The position numbers and the translations under genes are program-made. The notes under the pieces were generated by a model. It was given only the letters and a program-made list of their open reading frames with translations, was not told where the DNA came from and searched no databases. 64,000 nucleotides of DNA from the IMG/VR virus record IMGVR_UViG_3300028800_001035, positions 1 to 64,000 of that record; one strand, 5' to 3'. Position 1 is the first letter of the stretch; each line of letters starts with the position of its first letter. Below are positions 26,696 through 59,626 of the stretch, piece by piece. Origin of the DNA: a virus.

Positions 26696-27228
26696 TGACC
26701 TCCCTCGCCTGGGGCGCTCGCGTCTCCCCTCTCTTCCGGACGACGGTCGTCGGAATCGCGAGCGACCTCGCGATCTCCGACCCGTCGTGGCTTATGGCCG
26801 CGATGGCGTTCGAGACCGGGGAACGGTTCGCGCCCGACGTCCGCAACGGCGCGGGCTCCGGCGCGGTCGGCTTGATCCAGTTTATGCCGCAAACCGCCGC
26901 CGCCTTGGGAACCTCGACCGACGAGCTCGCCGCGATGACGCCCGAGACGCAGCTCGGCTTCGTTAAGGCCTACTTCGAGCCGCGCGCCGGTAGGCTCAAC
27001 AGCCTCGGAGACGTCTACGGTGCTATCCTGTGGCCCGCGATGATCGGCAAGCCCGACGACGCGGTCGTCTTCGACGAGGCCGACCCGCACCACCCGAAGC
27101 TCTACCTTCAGAACAAGGGCCTCGACCTCAACGCCGACGGTAAAATAACCAAGGCCGAAGTCGTCTCGCGCGTCGCGCGCGAGCTCGACCGGGGCCTCCT
27201 CCCGAACAACTCGACGGAGATCGTATGA
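26695..27228 (+). CDS. Endolysin (SLT/lysozyme-like) with EF-hand-like motif
   Basis: MAFETG catalytic Glu, AVGLIQFMP motif, DLNADGKITKAE. Confidence 0.85.
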   Translation: MTSLAWGARVSPLFRTTVVGIASDLAISDPSWLMAAMAFETGERFAPDVRNGAGSGAVGLIQFMPQTAAALGTSTDELAAMTPETQLGFVKAYFEPRAGRLNSLGDVYGAILWPAMIGKPDDAVVFDEADPHHPKLYLQNKGLDLNADGKITKAEVVSRVARELDRGLLPNNSTEIV

Positions 27229-30200
27229 ATATCAAGAAGCATACCCGCGCGCTCGCCTTCCTCGCCCCCCTGCTCTTTGCGGCGACCGCCGCGCTCGGCC
27301 AGTCCTCGCCGAATTTGGTGACGGGGCAGATCCCGACCGCCGCGCAGTGGAACTCCTATTTCGCCTCAAAGCTCGACTACACCGCCCCTCTAGCCGCGAT
27401 CGCGACGACCGGCTCCGCGAGCAACCTGATCACCGGAACCGTCCCCGTCGCGCGGCTCCCAATCGCGACGACCGGCGCGATCGGCGGCGTCAAGCCGGAC
27501 GGGTCGACGATTACTATCGGCCTCGACGGAACGATCACCTCCGTTTCGACCGGTGCTATCCCGTGCACGACGACCCCGAACAGCGTCCAGTACGACGCGG
27601 CGGGAGCCCTCGGCTGCGTTTCCGGCGTCACCTCCGACGCGACGGTCATGACGTTCGCACCGAGCGCGCTCAAGCTTTCCGGGTCTTCTTCCGGGGCGTC
27701 GTTCCTCAACGCGCCCGCGACCGGCGGCGGCCTCCTCGTCCTCCCCCCGGGGGCCGACACCCTCGTCGCCCGGACCTCGACCGACACCTTAACCGGCAAG
27801 TCGATATCAGGGGGTGCGAATACCTTTACCAATATCCCGAACGCGGCGCTGACCAACCCCGGTCTGACCCTCGGCTCGACCGGCCTAACCCTCGGCGCGA
27901 CGACGACGACCGTCGCCGGGTTGACCCTGACGACCCCGACGATTGCGCAGATCGTCAACACCGGGACGCTCTCCCTCCCGACCGCGACCGATACCTTGGT
28001 GGCGCGTGCGACGGCCGATACCTTGACCAACAAGTCGATGAGCGGGTCGGCGAACACCTTCACCAACCTGCCGAACTCGGCGTTCACCAACCCCTCGCTG
28101 ACCCTCGGCTCGACGCTCCTGACCCTCGGCGCGACGACGACCACGGTTGCGGGCCTTACCCTGACCGCGCCGACCTTTTCGACGATCGTCAACACCGGGA
28201 CGCTGACGCTTCCGATTTCAACCGACACCCTCGTCGCGCGGGCGACGACCGATACCTTGACCAACAAGTCGATGTCGGGCGGAGCGAATACCTTCACCAA
28301 CATCCCCAACGCGGCCTTGACGAACTCGAGCCTGACTATCGGATCGACCAACGTCGCCCTCGGCGCAACCGCCGCGACCGTCGCGGGGTTGACGCTTACC
28401 GCGCCGACCATCGCGACGATCGTCAACACCGGGACGCTAACCCTCCCGACCGCGACCGATACCTTGGTGGCGCGGGCGACGACCGACACCTTGACCAACA
28501 AGTCGATGAGCGGGTCGGCGAATACGTTCTCCAACATCCCGGTCGCGGCTTTGACCGGCGCGACGACCACGATCAATACTATCGCCTGCGCGCTCGGCGG
28601 CTCTTGTACCGTTCCCGCTGCCGCCGGGACCTTGACCGGCTCGGCCCTCGCCTCCGGCGTAACCTCCGCGCCGGGCGTGACCTCGATCAACGGCTCGACC
28701 GTTCCGACCGCGACCGATACCTTCGCGCTCCTCGCCGCGACCCAGACCTTGACGAATAAGACGCTCTCCGGCGCGTCGAATACGATCAACAACCTCAACG
28801 CCTCGAACGTCTCGAGCGGAACCCTCGCGACCGCGCGGACCGCCGTCGGCAAGTCCGTCCTCGACCCGGGGACCGGCGTCCTCGAAGCGATGTCGCCGGT
28901 TCAAACCGTAACGGCGACGAGCAAGACCTTCGCGACGGCGGACTTCCAGCTCGTCACGCGCCGGACCAATTCCGGGACGGCGATGACCGACACCTTCCCG
29001 GCCTCCTCGGCGACCGGGCTCGTCAATGGCACTGTGATGACCGTCAACAACGTCGACGCGACTGCCATCGACACGATCACGGCGGGGTCCGGGACGACGA
29101 TAGGCGGCAACGCGACCGACGTCCTCGAAGCCGGACGCTCGGCTGCCTATATCTATGACCTCGCGAACACGACCTGGCGGAAGAACTACAACTCCGGGAC
29201 CGCAGCGATCTTCGCGGCGACCGGCGGCAACGTCGCGAACGACATAGTCACGATGAGGACGAGCTACGGTGGCGTTCAGGACAGCGGTACGGCGCTATCG
29301 AGCCTCGCCCTCAACGGGACCGGCGCGGTCATAACGACGAGCCAGTCGCCGACGGCGGCCGACTTCAATACGACTTGCAAAACGTTCACGATCAACGCGA
29401 CGTCGCTGACGATAACCTTACCGCAGGCGAATACCCTTCAGCCGAACGGCGGATGCTATTTCGTCAGTAACCCGTCGGCTTTTTCGGCGACCGTTGCCCC
29501 GAACGCCGCCGACAAGATCAACAACGGAACGACCGGCGCGAGCGTCTCCGTCGCGGCGGGCTCCTTGACCCTCGTTACGACCGACGGGATCAACGGCGAC
29601 TTCCTCCCGCTCGGCGGCTCGAGCGGCTTCCCGATCACTCTCGGCTCGACCTCGGTCGGAGCGGGTTCGACGACGACGAGCATCTCCGGCTTGTCCCTCG
29701 TCGCGCCCGCCTTGGGAACACCCGCTTCCGGCGTCGCGACCAACTTGACCGGGCTTCCTTTGTCGACCGGCATCACCGGCTTCGGAACCGGCGTCGCGAC
29801 GCTTCTTTCTGGCGCGGCTTCCGGAACGGGAGGCCCCGTCGGGACGACGTCCCCGTCGTTCTCGGGAACGGTCAACGCCGTCGCGCTCGTCCTCTCCGGC
29901 AACTTGACGACGAACGTCACCGGGTCGACGCAGTGCCTCAACGTCAACACGCTCGGCGTTATCTCCGGCTTCGGGGCGGCGTGCAGCGGCGTTCAATTGT
30001 CGGCCGCGAACGTCTGGTCGGCGCAGCAGAGCAACTCGGTGACGACGTTGACGATCTCGACGGCGACCTTCACGCCCGACGGCTCGGCGAACAACTACAA
30101 GATCGGATTGACGAGCGCCTGCCCGTGCACGCTCGCCAACCCGAGCGCGACTCCCGTCGCCGGAACGGCCGGGCTGATGGAGGTCGATCAAGACGCGACC

Positions 30201-30365
30201 GGCAGCCGAACCTTCGGAACTTATGGTTCGCAGTATCAATTCCCGGGAGGGACCTCGACCTTGACGCTCAGCACGGCGGCGAACGCCGTCGACTATGTTC
30301 CTTTTTACGTCAGGGACTCGACACATATCGTTTTGAGCCCTCCGATCCTCAACCCGGTTCACTAA
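27225..30365 (+). CDS. Long Thr-rich fibre-like protein with Sec signal peptide
   Basis: MNIKKHTRALAFLAPLLFAATAALG signal; 78-aa repeats; C-terminal VDQDATGSRT...LSTAANAVD fibre-type motif. Confidence 0.75.
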   Translation: MNIKKHTRALAFLAPLLFAATAALGQSSPNLVTGQIPTAAQWNSYFASKLDYTAPLAAIATTGSASNLITGTVPVARLPIATTGAIGGVKPDGSTITIGLDGTITSVSTGAIPCTTTPNSVQYDAAGALGCVSGVTSDATVMTFAPSALKLSGSSSGASFLNAPATGGGLLVLPPGADTLVARTSTDTLTGKSISGGANTFTNIPNAALTNPGLTLGSTGLTLGATTTTVAGLTLTTPTIAQIVNTGTLSLPTATDTLVARATADTLTNKSMSGSANTFTNLPNSAFTNPSLTLGSTLLTLGATTTTVAGLTLTAPTFSTIVNTGTLTLPISTDTLVARATTDTLTNKSMSGGANTFTNIPNAALTNSSLTIGSTNVALGATAATVAGLTLTAPTIATIVNTGTLTLPTATDTLVARATTDTLTNKSMSGSANTFSNIPVAALTGATTTINTIACALGGSCTVPAAAGTLTGSALASGVTSAPGVTSINGSTVPTATDTFALLAATQTLTNKTLSGASNTINNLNASNVSSGTLATARTAVGKSVLDPGTGVLEAMSPVQTVTATSKTFATADFQLVTRRTNSGTAMTDTFPASSATGLVNGTVMTVNNVDATAIDTITAGSGTTIGGNATDVLEAGRSAAYIYDLANTTWRKNYNSGTAAIFAATGGNVANDIVTMRTSYGGVQDSGTALSSLALNGTGAVITTSQSPTAADFNTTCKTFTINATSLTITLPQANTLQPNGGCYFVSNPSAFSATVAPNAADKINNGTTGASVSVAAGSLTLVTTDGINGDFLPLGGSSGFPITLGSTSVGAGSTTTSISGLSLVAPALGTPASGVATNLTGLPLSTGITGFGTGVATLLSGAASGTGGPVGTTSPSFSGTVNAVALVLSGNLTTNVTGSTQCLNVNTLGVISGFGAACSGVQLSAANVWSAQQSNSVTTLTISTATFTPDGSANNYKIGLTSACPCTLANPSATPVAGTAGLMEVDQDATGSRTFGTYGSQYQFPGGTSTLTLSTAANAVDYVPFYVRDSTHIVLSPPILNPVH
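27756..28540 (+). repeat. Tandem 234-bp (78 aa) repeats, about 3.3 copies
   Basis: DTLVARAT.DTLTNKSMSG.ANTF.N.P unit; CCTTGACCAACAAGTCGATG recurs at 28021, 28255 and 28489. Confidence 0.9.
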
Positions 30366-35633: not shown

Positions 35634-35671
35634 AAAAACGCCGCCGAGGCTTTCGCTTCGGCGGCGTTTTT
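35634..35671. terminator. Bidirectional intrinsic terminator between the convergent arms
   Basis: AAAAACGCCGCCGAGGC-TTTC-GCTTCGGCGGCGTTTTT. Confidence 0.9.
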
Positions 35672-40578: not shown

Positions 40579-40636
40579 TTCTATTCTCCTTGGCCGCCCT
40601 CCCCGAAGTCGATCGGGGAATCGGGTCGACGCCGTC

Positions 40637-40667
40637 ATCCTAGCCCGGAACCCGGGGAAAAGTAAAG
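40637..40667 (-). promoter_or_regulatory. Early sigma70-like promoter (copy 1)
   Basis: CTTTACTTTTCCCCG; TTTACT-18-TAGGAT. Confidence 0.7.
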
Positions 40668-43000: not shown

Positions 43001-43032
43001 CCATAAGGCCCGATTCCCGGGGAAAAGTAAAG
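43001..43032 (-). promoter_or_regulatory. Early promoter (copy 2)
   Basis: Identical 15-mer CTTTACTTTTCCCCG; -10 element less clear. Confidence 0.6.
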
Positions 43033-43928: not shown

Positions 43929-44320
43929 GCCCGACCCTCCGCCCGCTTGGCGAACTTCTCGAGGCCCTCGAACTGTGCCCGCGAGAGCCGCCCGTTCCGG
44001 TCCCATTGATCCTTGATGCTCGCGATGAAGTCGTTTGCCTCTCCGCGCGGGTCCTTGCTCAAGACGGTCTCGAACATATCGTCGACGACCTTTGCGAAGG
44101 CAGCCTTCCGCACCGCCTCGGCGGACGGCTCCGTCTTCGCGTCGCGCGGCTCGATCTCGACCTCGACCTTGATAACGCGGTCGAGGACGCGATCCCAGGT
44201 CGTGTCCGACTTGCGGATGATCTCGTTCGCCGAGTTGATCGCGGTTAGCTTCTCCTGGTCCGCGCCGGAGAGCGTCATATTCATTAGTTTTTTGAGTCGG
44301 CGAAAATCCTCGAGCTTCAA
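43925..44320 (-). CDS. Hypothetical protein
   Basis: TTG start overlapping the exonuclease stop. Confidence 0.55.
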   Translation of the reverse strand: MKLEDFRRLKKLMNMTLSGADQEKLTAINSANEIIRKSDTTWDRVLDRVIKVEVEIEPRDAKTEPSAEAVRKAAFAKVVDDMFETVLSKDPRGEANDFIASIKDQWDRNGRLSRAQFEGLEKFAKRAEGRA

Positions 44321-44985
44321 AACAGCACCTCTTGTTTTTGCATATCTTCGCGGAGCGCAGCGACCGCGCCGTCGAGGACGGTCCGCCCTTCGTTGCGCCG
44401 CTTGATCTCGAAGTAGACCTCCGCCGCCGCGCGGCAATCGGCGAGCGCGCCGTGAGCGCCGGGATAGTCGCGCCCGAAGAAGAAGCGGTACGCCTCGGTC
44501 AGCTTCGGGGTCTTGAATTGGTCCGCCCGGCCCCAGCGGATCATCTGTTCGGTCGCGGGAAGGCGACAATGCGGCGACGCGAGCTCGGTCGTGTCGATCA
44601 CCTCGCCCGGCCCGGGGAGCGTGACGGGCTTGCCGTTGCGCGCGATCGCTTGCCGCATTATCGCGAGGTCGAACTTCGGATTGTGCGCGATGATCGCGTC
44701 GGCGCGAGAACGGAGGTGGACGTAGGCCGGGACGACGAGGGAGAGCGGGACGCCAAACTCCTCGGCGACCGCCGTCGTTATACCGTGAACGCGCACGGCG
44801 GAGTCGGGGATAACGTAGCGGCCTTCGGGGCGGACGATCAACTCGAGCGTCGCGAACTCCGCGCCGTTGTCTCCGTCGACGAGGAGGCAGCCGAGCTGGA
44901 CGAGCGGCGGCTGCGCCGGGTGATCGTCGGCGAGGCGGTCGCTCGGGATGCCGCAGGTCTCGGTGTCGAGGAAGAGGAGTTTCAA
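44317..44985 (-). CDS. DEDDh 3'-5' exonuclease (DnaQ-like)
   Basis: LDTETCG, AHNPKFD, AHGALADC. Confidence 0.9.
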   Translation of the reverse strand: MKLLFLDTETCGIPSDRLADDHPAQPPLVQLGCLLVDGDNGAEFATLELIVRPEGRYVIPDSAVRVHGITTAVAEEFGVPLSLVVPAYVHLRSRADAIIAHNPKFDLAIMRQAIARNGKPVTLPGPGEVIDTTELASPHCRLPATEQMIRWGRADQFKTPKLTEAYRFFFGRDYPGAHGALADCRAAAEVYFEIKRRNEGRTVLDGAVAALREDMQKQEVLF

Positions 44986-44995
44986 GAGAGGCCCC

Positions 44996-46683
44996 TTATT
45001 TCAGTACCCGTAGAAATTCCAAAACGGCGTCCGCCGTTCTAGTCGCTATAACCATCTGCTGCGGATCGCCATCTGGGTGATTTTTCGTCGGCAAAAATCG
45101 CCTATCCTGCGCTAACATAACAATCTCACCACAGATCGGAGTCAGGTTTATTCGTTTCCGAAAACACCGCATAAGGTCCCTCAATCGTAAGTTCGGAAAG
45201 CGGCGTGGAGCGCAATTAGCGCAACCACCGCAATTGCAACCCATTGCCATTGATCTGTAGTCATAACGTCGTTCCCTTCTAAATCTTAGTCAGGCCATTG
45301 GGATAAGCCTTGAACCATTCTCGGTCATACGAGCCCCGGTAACCGTCGAATTGCACATCGACCGTATCTCCGACACGATCAACGACGCCCTCCTTGCCAT
45401 TCATGTGTCGCACCCTATCGCCGTCAGCGAACTGAAATTCAAAAAACGCCTTGCCGCAGGTCGGACAATGTTTGACGATTTGATATGACATCGAACGTCC
45501 CTATTCTGTTGGTGGTGAAGAAGGCGGCGGGGGTGGGGGAACAGGATCGAACTGCTTTCCAGGGTCCGCCAGTAGCGCGAAAATCTCGCTCGCTGTCTTT
45601 CCTTGCGGGTAAACCATCTGGAAGTCGCCCTTTTCCAAATCTTGGAAATAGAGTCCGACCGTGAACCTAGCGCCTAAGTCATACGGAACGCGCGGCTGGT
45701 TATCAGCCGGATCGTCCGCAATGTATTCCCACCAATCTGGTCTCATAGCCGCCCCCTATTCTTCGTAATTGCCAGTGATAAGAGCAGTCAACGCTACGCA
45801 ACCCATTCCGAGCGGCCCAATGAAGCCAAGGTAGAAAAGCCAATCGCTCATAACGTCCCCTTCCTGTTAGTGGTTGATCTGGCAATCAATGCGCCCGCAA
45901 TCCGGACATTCATTCGTGTCCGCCGCCGTGATGCGCCTGCACGACGGGCAGAGAATGCGATGTTTGCTCTCGGCCATGAACGACCGCTCGCAGTTGGCAC
46001 ACCGGCATTCGTATTGCGGCGTTTCTGGTTCCATAGCCGTCCCCATTAAACTTTCTTGTTAAGGGCTTGCCTGCCCGCTTCGGTCACAACGTAGATGGTG
46101 TCCCGCCCGTTATTGATTGTGCGAGCGGCGCGCATGAACCCAAGCTGCACCAGGCTGTCGATGGTCGATTGATCGGCATGACAACCGGCAGTCTCGGCGC
46201 AGAAATAATTGCGGTAACTTTCCGTTGAGCGGTCTAGCCCCAACGAGTGCCGTATAATGTCTTTCTCAGGTTCGCGCAGCACGCCCATCCTTGGTCCCTA
46301 TTCCGCTGAGGTTGAAGTGTCCGGCACCGGGTCGCGGTAACCGTTTGCGAGTAAATTGCGGCGGCGCTCCGCTTCTTGCTTCGGGTCAAAGTCTATGGTG
46401 ATGACTTTGGTCCCAACTCTTGCGGGAGGAATGCTCTGATCGGTGCGAATTTTCATAACGTCGCCTCCCCTGCTGCTTCGAGTGCTTTGCGGATGCGATA
46501 TTGCGTCTCCGCGAAATTCGACTTGAACCATTCTATGGTCGGCCCTTCCGGCGCGTGGTGTGTCAGCGCCCCGGCAATGACGTAGCGCAGGGTCATCACC
46601 TTCTGCCGCAGACGCGTATTCTCGTTCAACACTTCTGCCAGGGCATCGTGTGCGTCCATCGTCGGTCCCCTTTCTACAAACAA
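44996..46683 (-). other. Lower-GC array of about 9 small ORFs (accessory region)
   Basis: ORFs at 44996-45250, 45279-45491, 45501-45746, 45756-45851, 45867-46034 (three CxxC pairs), 46046-46288, 46298-46457, 46453-46659; codon usage differs from the core. Confidence 0.65.
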
Positions 46684-46961
46684 CCGAACAACGCGCGAAG
46701 CGTCGGAGCTTCCTTGATCGCGCGCGTTAGGCCTACGATTCCTTCAATCAATCCCGGCGGAAGTCCGACAACGCGGACTTCGCCGATCGTCCTCGACTCC
46801 GCCGTCGCGCCGACGAAGAGCGTCCCGCGACCGCGAAGGCAGGCGATCGCCGCGCGAAGCGTCTCCGCGCCGCGCCCTTCGAGGAACGAAGTCTTCTCGG
46901 GTACGCCGAGGACGCGGAGCGCGATCTCCGCCTCGCGGCTCCGGGAATAGCCGACGATCAC
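46674..46961 (-). CDS. Hypothetical protein (resolvase N-terminus-like)
   Basis: MIVGYSR start resembles a serine recombinase N-terminus, but the ORF is only 95 aa. Confidence 0.4.
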   Translation of the reverse strand: MIVGYSRSREAEIALRVLGVPEKTSFLEGRGAETLRAAIACLRGRGTLFVGATAESRTIGEVRVVGLPPGLIEGIVGLTRAIKEAPTLRALFGCL

Positions 46962-47212
46962 CTTTGCCTCCTGATCTTGCCTTCAACCTTGCGCTCCCGC
47001 GCCGCCGCCTGCTTGTTGATCTCGGCGGTCGCCTCCCCGGCGATCCCGCCGAAGATAGCGCCCGCAACGAAGAGCGCAAACATCCGCTCCTTCTCGAGCT
47101 TTAGTATAAAATCCTTCGGACCAATCTCAGACGAGGTATATCCCGGCATCTCCGCCGCAAGGTAGTCCTCGAAGGCGTTCTCGAGCGATTCCTTGGAAAC
47201 AGAATATGTCAC
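46958..47212 (-). CDS. Hypothetical protein
   Basis: GTG start overlapping the polymerase stop. Confidence 0.55.
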   Translation of the reverse strand: MTYSVSKESLENAFEDYLAAEMPGYTSSEIGPKDFILKLEKERMFALFVAGAIFGGIAGEATAEINKQAAARERKVEGKIRRQR

Positions 47213-49176
47213 AGCGCCTCTCCCCACGTCCGCCCCGTCTTCGCCTCGACGAGGACCGGGACCTTGAGCTTGATCGCGTTCGGCATCACGTCCTCGTGAA
47301 GCTCGCGCCAAGCCTCGCGGCCCCGCGCCGTCCTCGGGATCGAGGAGTTGAGTTCGTCGTAGATCGTAAGTAGGTACGGCCCCAAGGCGTCCGATGCGGT
47401 CAATCCGCGATCGACGCCGTCGACCATCGCCTTCTTGATTATATCCGCGTTCGACGATTGCATCTTCTTGTTGAGCGCCGTGTAGGTGTGATAGCGGACG
47501 ATGTTCGGCCCGTATTCCTTCTCGGCCTCGGCCCGGCGGAGCGGCGTCGCGGGATTGTCCCAGTTCTTCTTCGCGGGCTCCCAGAGCAGGAACCGCTGGC
47601 GTCGCCGGAGGATCGAGCGGACGAAGCCGTGCTTCTCCGCGTACTTCTGCGCCGCGTCGAACGTATCCTTGTTGAACGGTAGCTTCGCGTCGTAGAGGTC
47701 GATGAAGGCCTGCGCCTCTTGCTTCGAGATGCCTAGCATCTCGCCGATCTTGTTCGCGCGGGCCCCATAGGTCTTGCCGAAGTTTAGGTTCTTGACATAT
47801 TTCCGCCGCTTCTTGTCCTCCGGCGGGATGCCAGCCATCTCGGCGCACATCTTGTGGTAGTCGGTCCTCGGGTCCTCGTTGTAGGTCCGCCGGACGGATT
47901 CCGCGCTCGGCCCGACCGCGAAGTGCGCGAGGAGCCGATACTCGATCTGCGAAAAGTCCGCCGAACCCCAATCCTCGCCGTCCTCCGGAAGGAAAAGCCC
48001 CCTGATCAGGGGGGCGACGTCGCGGAGATCTTCGTCGGCGCGGTCGTCGTCGCGGCTCGGGATGTTGGCGAGGTTCGGGTTCGCGCTCGCCGTCCGCGCG
48101 ATCGTACCGCCGCCGTCGTCCTTGAGTTGCTTCCACTCGCAATGTATCCGGCCCTTGACGTTCGAGCCGATGATCGTCCCGTCCATAAAGGTCGAGAGGA
48201 GGGTTTGAACCTTCCTCCCGTTGTAGATCGCGGAGCAGAGCGGGTCGCCGAGGCGGGCGGTTAGCCAACCCTTCGTAATCGAATCTTTCCCGGACTTCGG
48301 CGTCTTCGGGATTTGGTGCCCGTTCGCGCGAAGCGCGTCGGTGAAGCTCTCCGGGATTGAGAGCTCGGCCTTCGGGCTCGAGAGCCGCCGAACCTCGGCG
48401 AGGAGGCGGTCGCGGACGCGGACGAGGCCCTCGCGGGTCCGGATCGCGCCCGCGACGTCGACGCGAACGCCGCGCCGCGTCATATCGACCAAGGGGCGGA
48501 CGAGGCGGCGCTCGATCTCCCAGACCGGGAGGAGCTCCTCGGCGGCGAGCTTCTCGCGCTGGAGCTTGATGATCCGGAGCGGGCGGTCGACGTCGGCGAG
48601 CGCATAGGGCCCGGCGTGCGAGGAGTGGAGCTTCCAGACGTTCGACTTGATCTGCGAATCCGTCTTCCAGCCGCGCGCGTTGGCGGCCTTGCGGAGAAGC
48701 TCCTCGTCCTTGCCTTGCCCGAGGTAGTCGCGGGCGAGCGCGTCGAGGTTGAACTCGTAGCGCCATTCGTCGAGCAACGGCTCCGCGATTTGAACGTCGT
48801 CGAACGCCTCGACGAGCGGGAACGTCACGCCGTTCTCCGCGAGCCAGTCGAGGTCGTAGGCGAGCTTCGCGCCGACGACGGTCCCCCGGAAGGCGTTAAG
48901 CTCCTCGCGGGCCCAAGCCCAGACGATCCGCTCGTCGAGGTTGCCGCCGCCTTCGTGGCGAACGGGAAAGTACCAGCGGCGACCGTCTTCGGTCCCGACC
49001 GCGAGGCCGACGACGTAGTTGCCGGGGCGTCGGACGCCGGGGCCGAGCTCGGCGATTTGCGTATCCTTGGTCTCGACGTCGACGGCGAGATCGCCGAAGC
49101 GCGGCAAGCTCGGAAGCTCAGCGGGCGGATGCCAGGCCGGGACGTCCTCGAGCTCGACGGCGGAGAGGAGGTTCAA
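47209..49176 (-). CDS. Family A DNA polymerase (3'-5' exonuclease plus polymerase)
   Basis: VDVET exo I, YALAD exo III, NPNLANIP, ADFSQIEYR (A), RKYVKNLNFGKTYG (B), TIYDEL (C). Confidence 0.93.
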   Translation of the reverse strand: MNLLSAVELEDVPAWHPPAELPSLPRFGDLAVDVETKDTQIAELGPGVRRPGNYVVGLAVGTEDGRRWYFPVRHEGGGNLDERIVWAWAREELNAFRGTVVGAKLAYDLDWLAENGVTFPLVEAFDDVQIAEPLLDEWRYEFNLDALARDYLGQGKDEELLRKAANARGWKTDSQIKSNVWKLHSSHAGPYALADVDRPLRIIKLQREKLAAEELLPVWEIERRLVRPLVDMTRRGVRVDVAGAIRTREGLVRVRDRLLAEVRRLSSPKAELSIPESFTDALRANGHQIPKTPKSGKDSITKGWLTARLGDPLCSAIYNGRKVQTLLSTFMDGTIIGSNVKGRIHCEWKQLKDDGGGTIARTASANPNLANIPSRDDDRADEDLRDVAPLIRGLFLPEDGEDWGSADFSQIEYRLLAHFAVGPSAESVRRTYNEDPRTDYHKMCAEMAGIPPEDKKRRKYVKNLNFGKTYGARANKIGEMLGISKQEAQAFIDLYDAKLPFNKDTFDAAQKYAEKHGFVRSILRRRQRFLLWEPAKKNWDNPATPLRRAEAEKEYGPNIVRYHTYTALNKKMQSSNADIIKKAMVDGVDRGLTASDALGPYLLTIYDELNSSIPRTARGREAWRELHEDVMPNAIKLKVPVLVEAKTGRTWGEAL

Positions 49177-53749: not shown

Positions 53750-53779
53750 ATCCTATGCGCGTCGCGGGGAAAAGTAAAG
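53750..53779 (-). promoter_or_regulatory. Early promoter (copy 3)
   Basis: TTTACT-17-TAGGAT with the same 15-mer. Confidence 0.75.
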
Positions 53780-53994: not shown

Positions 53995-54402
53995 CTATAC
54001 GGACTGATCCGAACCCCGGAGGGTCCGGAGTTCGTCGCGGGTCAATTCGTTCTCGAGCTTGCCCAAGGCTTCGGACCAAGGCGATTCCGGATCGCGCGAC
54101 GTGTTCTCACGGGCTGCGCCCTCGTAGAGCCGGGCGTAGTACCACCGCGCGCTCTCGAGGGAGTGCTCCGGCATCTTCGAGCGCCGGAGATAGCGAAGAA
54201 TGTTCGAGGCGGCGGCGACCGGGCCCCAACCGAGGCGGAGCATCGCGTCCCACGGTTGCTCGCCTTCGACCCCGTAGTGCGCCTTCCTCGGCTCCCGATC
54301 CCCCTGGTTCTCCCGGACCGGCGCGAGGGCAGGGGGTTGGGCCCGTCGCTCGCTCGCGAGCTTCTCGATTCCCTCGACGGTTTCGCGATCGACGTCGGTC
54401 AC
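53995..54402 (-). CDS. DUF3310-like protein
   Basis: AHY...EQPWD...NILRYL.R.....LESARWY. Confidence 0.6.
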   Translation of the reverse strand: MTDVDRETVEGIEKLASERRAQPPALAPVRENQGDREPRKAHYGVEGEQPWDAMLRLGWGPVAAASNILRYLRRSKMPEHSLESARWYYARLYEGAARENTSRDPESPWSEALGKLENELTRDELRTLRGSDQSV

Positions 54403-54572
54403 GCCGCGACTCCTTCGAGCTTGTCGACCGCATCGCGTACGACTTCGGCGATCGAGATCAGGCGGCCCTCCCGGCGCGTTCGGCGCGCGGCTTCGAGCCG
54501 GAGCCGCTCGAGCTGGTCGGGGCGGAAGAGGACGTTGTAGTAGGTTGCGTTCTCGGCGAGCTTGGGCCTCAC
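54399..54572 (-). CDS. Ribbon-helix-helix (CopG-like) regulator
   Basis: YNVLFRPDQLERLRLEA...ISIAEVVRDAVD; not in the ORF track. Confidence 0.65.
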   Translation of the reverse strand: MRPKLAENATYYNVLFRPDQLERLRLEAARRTRREGRLISIAEVVRDAVDKLEGVAA

Positions 54573-54814
54573 TTGAACCTCCGGGGAAATTTCTCGAGCT
54601 TGAGCGGGCGCGTCCCTCGCGGGACGTAGCAGCGCTCGATTGAGACAACCCGTCCCATCGTTCCGACGAGCCCGGCGACCTCGAGCTCAATCATCGCCTT
54701 CGGAACGCGCGGCGCGTGCGCCTTGTAGAAATTGTCCGGGTCGAGGACCCTCTCGAAGAGCTTCCGCGCCGCCGGGGAGAGGCGGGCGATCTTGCGGTTG
54801 AGCGAAACGGTCAT
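54569..54814 (-). CDS. Hypothetical protein
   Basis: ATGA overlap (MTVSLNRK). Confidence 0.5.
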   Translation of the reverse strand: MTVSLNRKIARLSPAARKLFERVLDPDNFYKAHAPRVPKAMIELEVAGLVGTMGRVVSIERCYVPRGTRPLKLEKFPRRFK

Positions 54815-54975
54815 GCGCGCCACGCGAAGAAGACCAGCGCGGCGACGACGGCGACGAGGACGGCGTCGAAGAGGAACGACGCCCGGCGCTCGTCCGGCGA
54901 CATCTCGTCCCAGACGTCGGAGAAGGCGGGGTTGAAAGGACGCGGAACTTGCGGGACCCATGAAGGAATTTTCAT
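54811..54975 (-). CDS. Small membrane protein
   Basis: GGAGACGA RBS; MKIPSWVPQVPRPF... with C-terminal TM. Confidence 0.55.
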   Translation of the reverse strand: MKIPSWVPQVPRPFNPAFSDVWDEMSPDERRASFLFDAVLVAVVAALVFFAWRA

Positions 54976-54997
54976 TATCGTCTCCAGTTATAAAAAT

Positions 54998-55156
54998 GTC
55001 GCGGCGGGGAGTGGTCTCTTAGCCCTCTTGCGAAAGTCGATACGGTCTCGTTTGCGTAGGTTCGACCCCGCGTTGCGGGATGAACGGCTTTGCGACCGAC
55101 GAACTTTCCTCCTCCGACTGCTTTCGCCGACCGATACGCAACGCGGTCGCCGCGAC
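54998..55156 (-). ncRNA. Candidate structured non-coding RNA
   Basis: Perfect 9-bp closing stem, perfect 10-bp inner stem, GNRA-capped hairpins, promoter-like element directly upstream, AUUUUU downstream. Confidence 0.6.
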
Positions 55157-55162
55157 GATTCG

Positions 55163-55191
55163 AGTAAAGGGCATCGCGAAGGAGAAGTAAA
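55163..55191 (-). promoter_or_regulatory. Promoter-like element for the structured RNA
   Basis: TTTACT-17-TTTACT; same -35 hexamer as the three early promoters. Confidence 0.5.
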
Positions 55192-55193
55192 CA

Positions 55194-55778
55194 TCAATCT
55201 TCCCCGCAGCCGACGCCGATCGCGCCGCGATCCCGGCTCGAGACGAAGTCCTTCCAGAACTTCCAACCCTTCGGGCAATAGAAGCCCCAATCCCGTATGC
55301 GGAAGCCCATCAGGAAGAGGGAAACGGTTTCCGGTATGCTCCCGTCCGCCTCGCGCTTGAGGACGATCCGATGCGCCGTCGCCGCCCGGCGGATCGTTAC
55401 CGAGCCTTCCTTGCGAAATGTCTTGTACGTCGGGCGGAAGACCGCCTGCTCGCGTAGTTGCGATATGCGGGTCTCGGACAAGGGAACGAAGAGGACTTCC
55501 CAGTAGCCGGTCTTGAGCGGGATCGAGACGCTCCCGAACGGATGATCGTGAAGCGCCCGATCGTCGTCGTCGTGAAGGAACCGATGAACGTAAACCGCCG
55601 GGAGCGCCCGGACGAACGCCTCCCATCGGTTCTTCGGGACGGAGCCCTTCTCGTAGTTCGACCACGAACACAAATGCCACCGGAGCATATAGCGGTCGCC
55701 CGGCGGCCCGACCTCGAAGTCCGGAGACCGCGACGCCATTACGCGCTCGGCCCGTTTCAGTAACGCCTCTCTGATCAT
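55194..55778 (-). CDS. Cupin-like metal-binding protein
   Basis: VHRF...DDDRALHDHP....S..L..GY.E and a later HRI motif. Confidence 0.65.
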   Translation of the reverse strand: MIREALLKRAERVMASRSPDFEVGPPGDRYMLRWHLCSWSNYEKGSVPKNRWEAFVRALPAVYVHRFLHDDDDRALHDHPFGSVSIPLKTGYWEVLFVPLSETRISQLREQAVFRPTYKTFRKEGSVTIRRAATAHRIVLKREADGSIPETVSLFLMGFRIRDWGFYCPKGWKFWKDFVSSRDRGAIGVGCGED

Positions 55779-55791
55779 CTTCTCTCCTCCC

Positions 55792-57276
55792 TTAAATCCG
55801 ATACCCGTACTGCGTGCCCGGCGCGACGAGGATCAGCTTCTCCTTGCACCGCGTCGCGCCGACGTAGAACACGCGATGCTCGCTATCCTCGTCGAGCTCC
55901 ATCGCCCGGCTCGTCCGGTAGGTCATATCGGTGACGAGGACGACGCCCTCCGCCTCCGCGCCCTTGCTCCCGTGGATCGTCTCGATCCGGACCTTCGGCT
56001 CGTCGGTCAGCTTCCCGCCGCGCCGCATGATCGCGAGGTAATATTCGCGGGTCTCGAGGGGGATCTCGGTCAAGGCGTCGTGCCATATCCGGCCGGCATC
56101 GTAGCCGAGCTCGGCGGCGGAGCGGCTCCCCTCGAACGGCTCGAACGCGATCCCGGCGGACTTGGCGAGGGCGTCGGCCTCCTCCCGGTCTATCTTCTTG
56201 CCGCCCCGGAGCGCCTCGTGGGCCTTGATCGCGCGGACGTCGGCCCAGCGGACGGACTTCTCGCCCTTGACCTCGTACGCAACCCCCTGCGCCCTTGCGG
56301 CGGCGGCGAGCGCGGGAAGTTGCGCCCTAGTCCTCGCCAACAAGAGCCAGCGCCCGTCCCCTCCGAGGCCCGCTCCGGAGAAGTCGACCTCGTCGGCGGC
56401 GGCAACCCAATCGACCGACCCTTCCCGGTTGGAGGGCCGCCAGTCGCGGGCGTACTTCTTGCCGATCCGCGCCCCGATCTCCGCCGCGAGCCGGAAGGGG
56501 GCTCGCGGTAGGCGATGCGACAGGGGGAGATTCTCGATCTCGAAGCCCTCGGCGCGGAGGCCGAGGAACTTCTCCTCGTCGGCCCCGGCCCAGTGGTGGA
56601 TCATTTGCATATCGTCCCCGGCGACGAAAAGTTCCTCCGCGTTGGCGAAGAGGCGGTTCGCGACGCGCCACTGCGCGCGGGAGAGGTCTTGCGCTTCGTC
56701 GACGATCGCGACGTCGACGTCGAGCGGGGGAAAGGAGGAGTCGGCGTAGCGCGTCAGCATATCCGTGAAGTCGAGGACGTCCTCGTCGTCCTTGTAGGCC
56801 TCGTAGGCGCGGTTGAAGCGGAGGAGCCGGAACCACTCGAGCTCGGAGCCGTGATCGCTCCAGGCGTCGGCGAGCGAGCGCCCGGTCGTCCGCGCGAAGT
56901 GGTCGAGCGTCAAGAGCGGATCGGCGGAGCGACCAGCGACCGGCGCGTCGGAGAAGGGGTTCGTCAAGGACGTCAGGAGCTCGCCGGTAATCTCGGAGAC
57001 GCGGTCGAGGTGCTCGTCGCCGAGGACGCGGCCCCGCCCGAGGCCGAGCTCGCGGAAGGCGAAGGCGTGGATCGTCTTGAAGTTCGGGAGGTCGTCCGGG
57101 GTTAGGCCGAAGGCGTCGCAGGCCCGCTTGATCGCGAGCCGGATCGCCTCCTTCGTAAAGGACGCGAAGGCGATCCGCGCGGGCGGGATGCCCGCCTCTA
57201 AGGCGAGCTCGACCTTGCGGAGGAGCTTCTCCGTCTTGCCAGCGCCGGGCCCGCCGAGGACGAGGACCTTCCTCAT
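55792..57276 (-). CDS. Second UvrD-like SF1 helicase
   Basis: GGPGAGKT, TIHAF, VDEAQD, AGDD.Q.I, TIHGSKGAE, YVGATR. Confidence 0.92.
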   Translation of the reverse strand: MRKVLVLGGPGAGKTEKLLRKVELALEAGIPPARIAFASFTKEAIRLAIKRACDAFGLTPDDLPNFKTIHAFAFRELGLGRGRVLGDEHLDRVSEITGELLTSLTNPFSDAPVAGRSADPLLTLDHFARTTGRSLADAWSDHGSELEWFRLLRFNRAYEAYKDDEDVLDFTDMLTRYADSSFPPLDVDVAIVDEAQDLSRAQWRVANRLFANAEELFVAGDDMQMIHHWAGADEEKFLGLRAEGFEIENLPLSHRLPRAPFRLAAEIGARIGKKYARDWRPSNREGSVDWVAAADEVDFSGAGLGGDGRWLLLARTRAQLPALAAAARAQGVAYEVKGEKSVRWADVRAIKAHEALRGGKKIDREEADALAKSAGIAFEPFEGSRSAAELGYDAGRIWHDALTEIPLETREYYLAIMRRGGKLTDEPKVRIETIHGSKGAEAEGVVLVTDMTYRTSRAMELDEDSEHRVFYVGATRCKEKLILVAPGTQYGYRI

Positions 57277-58009: not shown

Positions 58010-58854
58010 TGTTTTCCCTTTCCGAGGTTCTTGGTGAATAGTTCTTCGAGGCCCGCCGCGTAGGCGGCGATCAGGGTCGCTCCGGAGGAGAGCTTCCGCG
58101 ACTCCGCCATTCCGAAGAGATATTTGATCCCGACGGTCTTGATCGCGCGGATCACGCCGATCGGGTCGGCGAGCCACGCCGGGTTGGCGGCGAGGACGGA
58201 GGTCGTCGCCGTCACGATCGGGGCGCGGAGGAGGCCCGGGTTGCCGCCGCCGGTATCGACGACCGTCCGGAGCGCGAGTTCGAGGACCTCGGGCCCCCAG
58301 GACTTGAAGGCCTTCTCGAGCGCGCCGATCGCGAGGGTCTCGCCGGGGACCATCCCGGAGAGCGGCTTCGTCCCGCGCGGGATCGTCACGCCGACCTTCT
58401 CGAGGACGCGGCTCAAGCGGACGGCGACGGAATCCCCGGCCATGAGCCGCGCGTGCCAGATTTGCTGCTCGGCGATCGCGGTAACGGCCCCGTTGATCAC
58501 GGAGAAGGCCTTCGCCTCGTCCGCCCGGTCCCCCCTGATAACGAGGCACGGGACCTTCTCGATCCCGCCGTGGGTCCGCGCTGCGATCGCCCGGTGCTGC
58601 CCGTCGATTACGGCGTAGAGGCCGCCCTCGCGCGCGCAGACGACGAGCGGGGAGAAGAGGCTCCAGGAGAAGTTTTCGATCACCTGCCGGATGTTCTTCT
58701 CGCCCTTCGGCCCGATCGGTCGCTGATACTTCGGGTCGATCCGGAGGTCGCGGAGGTCGAGCCACGCGAGCTCGCCGACGGCGTCGGTCGGAGCCGGGTT
58801 CGGGAAGGGCGGCGCGAAGGCGACCGCGTCGAGGGAGAGAAGTTCGTCGTTCAT
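58006..58854 (-). CDS. ParB/Srx-like domain protein (DUF6551-like)
   Basis: LRIDPKYQR, VIDGQHRA.AA, EAKAF..IN. Confidence 0.75.
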   Translation of the reverse strand: MNDELLSLDAVAFAPPFPNPAPTDAVGELAWLDLRDLRIDPKYQRPIGPKGEKNIRQVIENFSWSLFSPLVVCAREGGLYAVIDGQHRAIAARTHGGIEKVPCLVIRGDRADEAKAFSVINGAVTAIAEQQIWHARLMAGDSVAVRLSRVLEKVGVTIPRGTKPLSGMVPGETLAIGALEKAFKSWGPEVLELALRTVVDTGGGNPGLLRAPIVTATTSVLAANPAWLADPIGVIRAIKTVGIKYLFGMAESRKLSSGATLIAAYAAGLEELFTKNLGKGKQ

Positions 58855-59207
58855 ATCGCCTCCGCGTTCGGGTCCGCCATATAGTAGCCGCGTCCCCAGG
58901 ACGTCCCGATGTCGATCCCGAGCGGCTTGATTTTCTTCCGGAGCTTGCAGACGTATACGTCGACTATCTTGATCTCCGGGACCTCTTCCTCGGTCCTCCG
59001 GAGTTGGTATAGGTGCTCGAGGATCGCCTCCTTCGGGACGATCCGCCCGGCCCTCTCGAAGATGAACTCGAAGACCGCCATCTCCTGCGGGGTCAACGAC
59101 CCGCAGCGCTTGCCGCCGTAGCGTATCTCCGCGCGGTCGCGGTCGAGGATTATTCCGCCGAACTCGGGAAGCGCCGAACCGCAATGCTCGCAAACTCTCC
59201 CGCTCAT
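58851..59207 (-). CDS. CtrA-like OmpR winged-helix protein without receiver domain
   Basis: KEAILEHLY...PEIKIVDVYVCKLRKK...IGTSWGRGY; N-terminal CxxC. Confidence 0.8.
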   Translation of the reverse strand: MSGRVCEHCGSALPEFGGIILDRDRAEIRYGGKRCGSLTPQEMAVFEFIFERAGRIVPKEAILEHLYQLRRTEEEVPEIKIVDVYVCKLRKKIKPLGIDIGTSWGRGYYMADPNAEAI

Positions 59208-59626
59208 CCGTAGACCTCCCCTATCATCGACGCGACGGCGCGAGCGTGCGGGCCCGTCGCCTCGAACTGCTCGACGAGGATCGCGACGACCTTGCTCCGG
59301 CGCTCGAGCTCGCCGGGCGCGAGCTCCGGGCGCGTCGCGCGAACGGCGGAATAGCCGAGCCCGAAAACGGTCGTCGTCAGGACGACGCCGTAGTCCGCGA
59401 GCTTGAAACGGAGCCGCGAGGCGTAGACGCGGGAGGCGTTGAGCGGGTCCTCTTCGACCTTGCCGACGTCGCCGACGAGGTCCCGATGCCGCACCGGGCG
59501 ACCCTCGGCGCGAAGTAGCGTCGCGACGAAGCGCGCCTCGGCGCGGGTCAGGCTCATTTCGACCGGGGCGTGAAACCGCCTCGCGACCTCGTCGAACGAC
59601 CATCCTCCCCACTCGATCATCATCAC
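59204..59626 (-). CDS. Second OmpR-type winged-helix protein
   Basis: LTRAE....LL...GRPV....L, VYASRLRFKL, TVFGLGY. Confidence 0.7.
   Translation of the reverse strand: MMMIEWGGWSFDEVARRFHAPVEMSLTRAEARFVATLLRAEGRPVRHRDLVGDVGKVEEDPLNASRVYASRLRFKLADYGVVLTTTVFGLGYSAVRATRPELAPGELERRSKVVAILVEQFEATGPHARAVASMIGEVYG

Follow-up and report, generated by a model that had tools for sequence, protein, structure and literature searches.

The late promoter of phage lambda, pR', gives rise to the '6S' RNA, a short leader that extends from pR' to the terminator tR', which is passed only after antitermination by Q. Long structured 5' untranslated regions (5' UTRs) are also a feature of type I toxin mRNAs such as tisB, zorO and hok. 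Here we describe a 159-nt element with partial likeness to both systems. It lies at 55156-54998 on the minus strand of the phage genome fragment IMGVR_UViG_3300028800_001035, and a first-pass annotation had flagged it as a structured RNA with its own promoter. The window analysed is the first 64 kb of this 72,463-bp IMG/VR virus record (G000) and has ~65% GC; all coordinates refer to it. Our favoured but tentative reading, with a probability of roughly 0.35, is that the element is a promoter-proximal leader whose closing stem and U-run serve as an attenuator, yielding a leader RNA of ~165 nt ahead of a cassette of ORFan open reading frames (ORFs). A regulatory leader for the small downstream genes had been among the options offered by the first-pass annotation, and it is the one that fits the context best. 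That context, meaning the promoter, the length of the leader and the cassette that follows, is more telling than the fold.

The element occupies a 218-nt spacer (54976-55193) between two co-oriented genes of the minus strand. The motifs and pairings listed in the first-pass annotation are all present where it placed them, and its assignment of the minus strand is supported. Two copies of TTTACT (55191-55186 and 55168-55163) are separated by a 17-nt spacer, the second being a putative, weak -10 hexamer. The 5' arm of the closing stem P1, GTCGCGGCG (RNA form GUCGCGGCG; 55156-55148), begins 6 nt past the second TTTACT and pairs perfectly over 9 bp with the 3' arm CGCCGCGAC (55006-54998), giving the 159-nt span, with pair probabilities of 0.93-1.00. 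Directly 3' of P1 is an A followed by five U residues (ATTTTT, 54997-54992), which resembles the end of a terminator. The P2 domain (55068-55146) is closed by a perfect 10-bp stem between 55146-55137 and 55077-55068 (probability 0.97-0.99). It contains the motif GC-GAAA-GC, a purine run GGAGGAGGAAAGUUCG (55115-55100) and the pair CGGU..GCCG, and the pairing of this interior is ambiguous; GCGAAAGC can be read at 55127-55120. P3 (55036-55067) is composed of GGUCGA/UCGACU and UACG/CGUA at probabilities of 0.67-0.92, with GTCGA/TCGAC at 55066-55062 and 55040-55036 and TACG/CGTA at 55058-55055 and 55044-55041. A candidate hairpin, CUUUC-GCAA-GAGGG (55023-55036; 5 bp, two of them G-U), rivals P3 and an alternative GAGGG/CCxCUC pairing. 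P1, P2 and P3 are present in both the minimum free energy (MFE) and centroid folds from ViennaRNA, and the pairs of P1 and P2 have probabilities of 0.9-1.0.

The first TTTACT opens a 15-nt motif variant, TTTACTTCTCCTTCG (55177-55191, minus strand), which is -35-like and lies 3 nt past the stop codon of the upstream cupin-like gene. This variant fits the degenerate pattern of the canonical form, TTTACTTTTCCCCGG, at 14 of 15 positions. The canonical form or a close variant occurs five times on the reverse strand of G000, which is the early-gene strand, and is absent from the forward strand. In a 68-kb IMG/VR record (G001), the sole relative that was found, it occurs four times on the forward strand and never on the reverse, again always on the gene strand. 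A reversed-pattern control gave 1 and 0 matches, and a search allowing up to three mismatches returned three matches where 0.41 were expected. Canonical sites lie upstream of genes at 40652-40666, 43017-43031 and 53764-53778 in G000 (minus strand) and at 27470, 30427, 39628 and 41143 in G001 (plus strand). In these a hexamer reading TAGGAT, TAGGCT or TAGGGT comes 17-18 nt past the motif, where the site at 55191 has its second TTTACT. When the clade pattern was searched in viral contigs, G001 was the one match. The first TTTACT therefore appears, from its recurrence upstream of genes in both phages, to belong to a clade-specific, sigma-70-like promoter motif placed in gene orientation, as the first-pass annotation had proposed for this copy. 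A promoter scan of 54000-56500 found no promoter-like site on the plus (antisense) strand.

The site at 55191 differs from its counterparts in the length of DNA that follows. A start codon is obvious at seven of the other sites, where the ATG lies 59, 28 and 48 nt past the second hexamer in G000 and 25, 61, 47 and 24 nt past it in G001. At the element's site this separation is 187 nt. With 159 nt subtracted, the site becomes a normal cassette ending in ATAACTGGAGACGA-ATG, and the extra DNA corresponds to the 159 nt bounded by P1 together with the A and T5 run (T5, five consecutive T). The ribosome-binding-site (RBS) cassette ATAACTGGAGACGA (54978-54991) is common to other promoter-proximal genes of both phages in the form ATAACCGGAGACGA, which is often present at the other motif sites; the A+T5 run is absent from their standard promoter-to-RBS cassette. 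In a fold of the putative 227-nt transcript, the Shine-Dalgarno (SD) sequence and AUG of the first downstream gene lie outside the element's predicted structure and the SD is unsequestered. An RBS left open in this way would fit control of transcription over control of translation, and it speaks against a translational switch such as those of type I toxins.

T5 runs are rare in the window, with 13 on the minus strand and 11 on the plus strand. Two of the 13 minus-strand runs belong to canonical hairpin-plus-T5 terminators, at 61290-61256 and 35666-35638, so this phage does use such signals. The T5 run at 54996 follows the 3' arm of P1 after 1 nt, a single A. That arm forms no local hairpin and has no partner other than the element's 5' end, 141 nt upstream. 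The arrangement has the GC-rich stem directly followed by a U-run that is expected of an intrinsic terminator: a perfect 9-bp P1, 1 nt, then T5. Like the phage's own terminators, it consists of a GC-rich perfect stem ending in ...GCG/GGG and then T5 on the transcribed strand. Unlike them, it spans 159 nt with one A before the T-run, whereas they span 28-33 nt and abut theirs. The terminator at 35638-35667 is bidirectional (CGCCGCCGAAGCGAAAGCCTCGGCGGCG, with T5 on both strands) and lies where the plus- and minus-strand gene blocks converge.

From this arrangement we infer where transcription would start and end. Transcription would begin from the promoter motif at 55191, at or near 55156, and would also arrive by read-through from the upstream helicase and cupin genes. 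The 159-nt body of the leader would fold as an independent three-way-junction domain, and the 9-bp, GC-rich P1 with its A+U5 would act as an intrinsic-terminator-like attenuator. The majority of transcripts would then end at ~54992 as a leader RNA of ~165 nt, and the remainder would read through into the three ORFan genes, which encode proteins of 54 (membrane-type), 81 and 57 aa, with any regulation acting on this read-through.

The putative arrangement resembles that of lambda pR'-tR' in that a promoter is followed by a terminator within ~160-190 nt, so that a short leader RNA would be the default product and the downstream genes would need read-through. It differs in that the terminator stem closes the entire leader, with 141 nt enclosed, whereas that of lambda is a local hairpin. 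The genes that follow are small ORFans of the early/replication arm, unlike the late genes of lambda. Neither an antiterminator nor a qut-like site was identified, and termination is putative. The likeness to type I toxin mRNAs lies in a leader of ~180 nt that precedes a protein of fewer than 60 aa with one hydrophobic helix. Unlike those mRNAs, the SD and AUG are free in the predicted fold and the protein has no toxin-family homology.

The segment 55156-54998 is non-coding. The 159-nt core has 63% GC and codon-phase GC values of 0.64/0.57/0.68, a range of 0.11, and none of 349 coding windows is as flat. Genes passing our codon-position GC filter (GC at third codon positions, GC3, > 0.78) span 0.78-0.96 and typically fall at 0.80-0.93. 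The sole internal ORF, of 51 aa at 55019-55174, was rejected as a gene: it has a GC3 of ~0.65, no SD and no tblastn match in phages. An overlapping ORF at 54988..55680, whose translation and conservation would have spoken against an RNA, failed the same filter and is an off-frame shadow of the cupin-like gene at 55194-55778. The first-pass annotation's view of the segment as RNA and not protein thus agrees with its lack of codon periodicity.

Comparison with G001 places the element at the head of a block that differs between the two phages. At this spot G001 has the cupin homolog, the promoter motif, 25 nt and then a thyX-like gene. None of the 54-, 81- and 57-aa ORFs has a counterpart in G001, and thyX has none in G000. 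Synteny returns at the next promoter motif and a 220-aa gene. Since the two phages differ between the conserved motifs and agree again after them, the element heads a variable ORFan cassette lying between two conserved promoter motifs. The first gene of the cassette (54811-54975, minus strand) encodes the 54-aa protein with a hydrophobic C-terminal stretch and has a GC3 of 0.83; the second and third ORFs, of 81 aa (54569-54814) and 57 aa (54399-54572), lie on the same strand. No Pfam or PHROG family was found for any of the three proteins. For the 81-aa protein, viral contigs gave nothing and a protein search returned the query alone. As a separate observation, the promoter motifs that flank the cassette may double as recombination boundaries.

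Several results weigh against the attenuator leader, and many of these favour a transcribed spacer without function, in which the DNA would be left over from a horizontally exchanged ORFan cassette and the stems would be chance pairings of a 63% GC sequence. We rate this reading almost as probable as the attenuator leader. The MFE of the 218-nt spacer has a z-score of -0.16, with 84 of 200 shuffles equally or more stable, and that of the 227-nt putative transcript a z-score of -0.68 (50 of 200). The core folds at -64.8 kcal/mol, a value matched or beaten by 40% of 1598 native 159-nt windows and by 20% of the 561 with matched GC. Perfect stems within 200 nt are common across the window (147 of at least 9 bp, 53 of at least 10 bp), and nested pairs of perfect stems of at least 9 bp occur at nine places including the element, mostly inside genes. 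Each strand has a single hairpin with a GNRA loop and a stem of 3 bp or more, and 25% of shuffles contain at least one, so the loops do not fix the strand as had been claimed. The pairing read as a pseudoknot or switch (5 bp, a bulge and 3 bp) is present in 61% of 300 shuffles. The fold of the element, which the first-pass annotation had treated as special, is thus mostly no better than chance in this genome. One measure favours it: a perfect equivalent of the two long stems of the core (9 bp plus 10 bp) arises in 1.3% of 1000 dinucleotide shuffles.

Further difficulties concern the two ends of the proposed leader and its relatives. The second TTTACT has the T at position 6 but lacks the A at position 2 of a -10 hexamer and was not called by a sigma-70 scan, which speaks against the -10 box that had been assigned to it. 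A promoter directly followed by a terminator reverses the usual order. P1 encloses 141 nt, whereas canonical terminator loops have a few nt, and a terminator consensus scan for loops of 3-8 nt did not call P1-T5. Long-range stems of 8 bp beside runs of four or five T are also found within coding DNA; such stems occurring inside genes, the coincidence of P1 and T5 is suggestive and not decisive. The element is absent from G001, and no homolog of it was returned by any search. Three exact probes (20-22-mers) had no match in viral contigs, and blastn against phages and plasmids gave short matches only (best E >= 0.5). The covariance model built for the element (R1) matched no sequence but the element in G000 and had no match in G001. 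The cupin protein, searched in viral, metagenome and genome contigs, led to G001 alone, as did the helicase. Two other sets of matches, to 20-mer probes, were discarded. The 75 stretches matched in metagenomes all derive from one coding locus of a single organism in gut-type assemblies, with unrelated flanks, and amount to one chance match. The single match in genome contigs is in a Planctomycetaceae metagenome-assembled genome, with unrelated flanks and no R1 match. The public runs found to contain the phage are all DNA. Of four that were analysed, two gave contigs identical to the window over this region (X1 at 54988-55166 and X2 at 54959-55208, with 0 other letters), so they provide no variants by which to test the pairing; the run that matches best may come from the source sample itself.

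Set against a functionless spacer are the compactness of phage genomes and the 24-61 nt that separate promoter and ATG at the seven other sites. The flat codon-phase GC shows that the segment is not a recent remnant of a gene in one frame. The coincidence of boundaries is exact: the promoter ends 6 nt before P1, P1 spans the extra segment, and T5 follows 1 nt past P1. The rarity of the two stems among shuffles of the core also tells against it. Absence of the element from G001 is expected of leftover DNA, the whole cassette between the motifs differing between the phages and the 81-aa ORF being an ORFan. On balance the leader remains the best fit to what the sequence offers, although it rests on a single sequence and strong structural claims are unsupported. 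If real, the element would be a leader/attenuator, which is an already known kind.

The promoter motif, paired ends and U-tail would equally suit a standalone phage RNA acting in trans, such as a small RNA, decoy or ribozyme of a new family, with a loop GGAGGAGGAAAG offered to a partner such as the 16S anti-SD or a pyrimidine-rich target. As might be expected of such an RNA, the domain does not depend on the downstream RBS and is non-coding and GC-rich, but it has no Rfam match, no homolog and no second copy, its fold is at background, part of the purine run is paired in the predicted ensemble and nothing points to a target; we consider this reading unlikely. Least probable is a bolder version, in which an RNA of ~165 nt from an undescribed family, bearing the double Shine-Dalgarno-like loop GGAGGAGGAAAG, would act in trans as a ribosome/anti-SD decoy or protein sponge while also gating the membrane-protein cassette. 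RNase III sites occur in the early transcripts of phages T7 and lambda, and an intercistronic element for RNA processing or stability would place P1 and P2 as substrates of a double-strand-specific RNase or as a shield for the 3' end of the helicase-cupin message. The position between co-oriented genes and the open downstream RBS agree with this idea. P1 (9 bp) and P2 (10 bp), 1 nt apart on the 5' strand, could stack, but their 3' strands are 61 nt apart, so that no continuous duplex of ~20 bp would form. Taken with the absence from G001, this makes a processing site improbable. We give similarly little credence to a feature of the DNA itself, either an insertion bounded by inverted repeats in the manner of a miniature inverted-repeat transposable element (MITE) or a site of recombination or replication close to the replication genes. 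The perfect 9-bp terminal inverted repeats enclose ~160 nt of non-coding DNA, as in a MITE, and bound the extra segment exactly within a canonical promoter-RBS cassette; an AT-rich tract adjoins, and the segment lies at the edge of the cassette that differs between the phages. Unlike a MITE, the element has flanks (CGAATC and ATTTTT) without a target-site duplication and has no relatives found. It is present once in G000 and not at all in G001, probes met nothing in viral contigs and unrelated loci in metagenome and genome contigs, and there are no iterons besides the two TTTACT copies.

Searches for known RNA families bear out the first-pass annotation's view that none can be assigned. In the whole window none of the 4227 families of Rfam 15 matched at gathering thresholds. 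At E <= 10, the region 54700-55500 gave three weak matches (14.7-19.1 bits against gathering thresholds of 36-48), none on the strand and span of the element. ARAGORN found no tRNA or tmRNA genes in the window. The first-pass annotation had also heard an echo of RNase P RNA. The purine run at 55115-55100 holds GAGGAAAGUUC, which matches 10 of 11 positions of GAGGAAAGUCC, a motif of the P4 region of that RNA. The element is far shorter than bacterial RNase P RNAs, GAGGAAAGUUC is also simply a double Shine-Dalgarno-like run, and the RNase P models gave no match to the element even at E <= 10; the echo accordingly finds no support from the models. No reverse transcriptase lies next to the element, as one would for a retron non-coding RNA: the downstream ORFs are without a Pfam family, and the upstream neighbours encode the cupin-like protein and a UvrD-type helicase. 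Six neighbouring proteins matched no family in the PADLOC library of defence and toxin proteins.

The wider genome is organized in two arms. Structural genes occupy the plus strand up to ~33 kb and include a large terminase and a capsid-type protein (phrog_6671) with 59% identity to proteins of Klebsiella, Yersinia and Pantoea phages. From ~34 kb the minus strand carries replication and early genes, among them a DNA polymerase, a primase, two SF1 helicases, a methyltransferase and a clamp-like protein. The cupin-like gene directly upstream of the element belongs to phrog_4786 (PHROGs label 'cysteine dioxygenase', E 1.6e-42) and shares 52% identity with its G001 homolog; the UvrD-type helicase further upstream is 72% identical in G001. 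An OmpR/PhoB-type winged-helix DNA-binding protein is encoded at 58851-59612 on the minus strand (Pfam Trans_reg_C, E 5.9e-13) and is a candidate regulator of the repeated TTTACT-type motif. Near the left end is an AT-rich non-coding stretch (300-420), a possible operator, origin or packaging-type site. It contains the palindrome ACGGAAATATAATTTCCGT at 342-360, and GAAATATAATTTCCGT is present there in a second copy at 389-404. A tandem repeat of 234 bp in 3.4 copies (77% match) at 27754-28556, within a 1046-aa ORF at 27225-30365, probably reflects a repetitive tail or fibre protein. The region 44000-48000 has a GC content of 0.59-0.61 against ~0.65 overall and several T5-6 runs, and ~45050-46950 is without any ORF of at least 150 aa.

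A second leader in this genome is conserved between the two phages. It lies behind the promoter at 40666 (40579-40637, minus strand; L004:93-153), and its hairpin reads CCCCGA-UCGACU-UCGGGG in one phage and CCCGGA-CCGACU-UCCGGG in the other, with one compensatory change from C-G to G-C. Judged by conservation, this leader is a stronger candidate than the 159-nt element for a conserved leader structure. A likeness between ATCGACTTTCGCAAGAGGGC in the element and the 40666 leader was put down to chance: the window contains ATCGACTT 12 times, where 2.45 are expected. The gapped pattern gave three matches with at most one mismatch against 1.1 expected, and eight of 100 shuffles reach three; the match is exact at the element only, and there is none at the 40666 leader.

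The locus serves as a worked example: in a genome of 65% GC, the presence of perfect nested stems and of GNRA-like loops does not in itself amount to evidence for a structured RNA. If P1 and its U-run do terminate transcription, the element would form an intrinsic terminator with a folded domain of 141 nt as its 'loop'. In this uncultured soil phage it would switch between making a short leader RNA and expressing the ORFan cassette. It would then add modestly to the known attenuators of phage transcription, and may offer a handle on how such cassettes are kept quiet.

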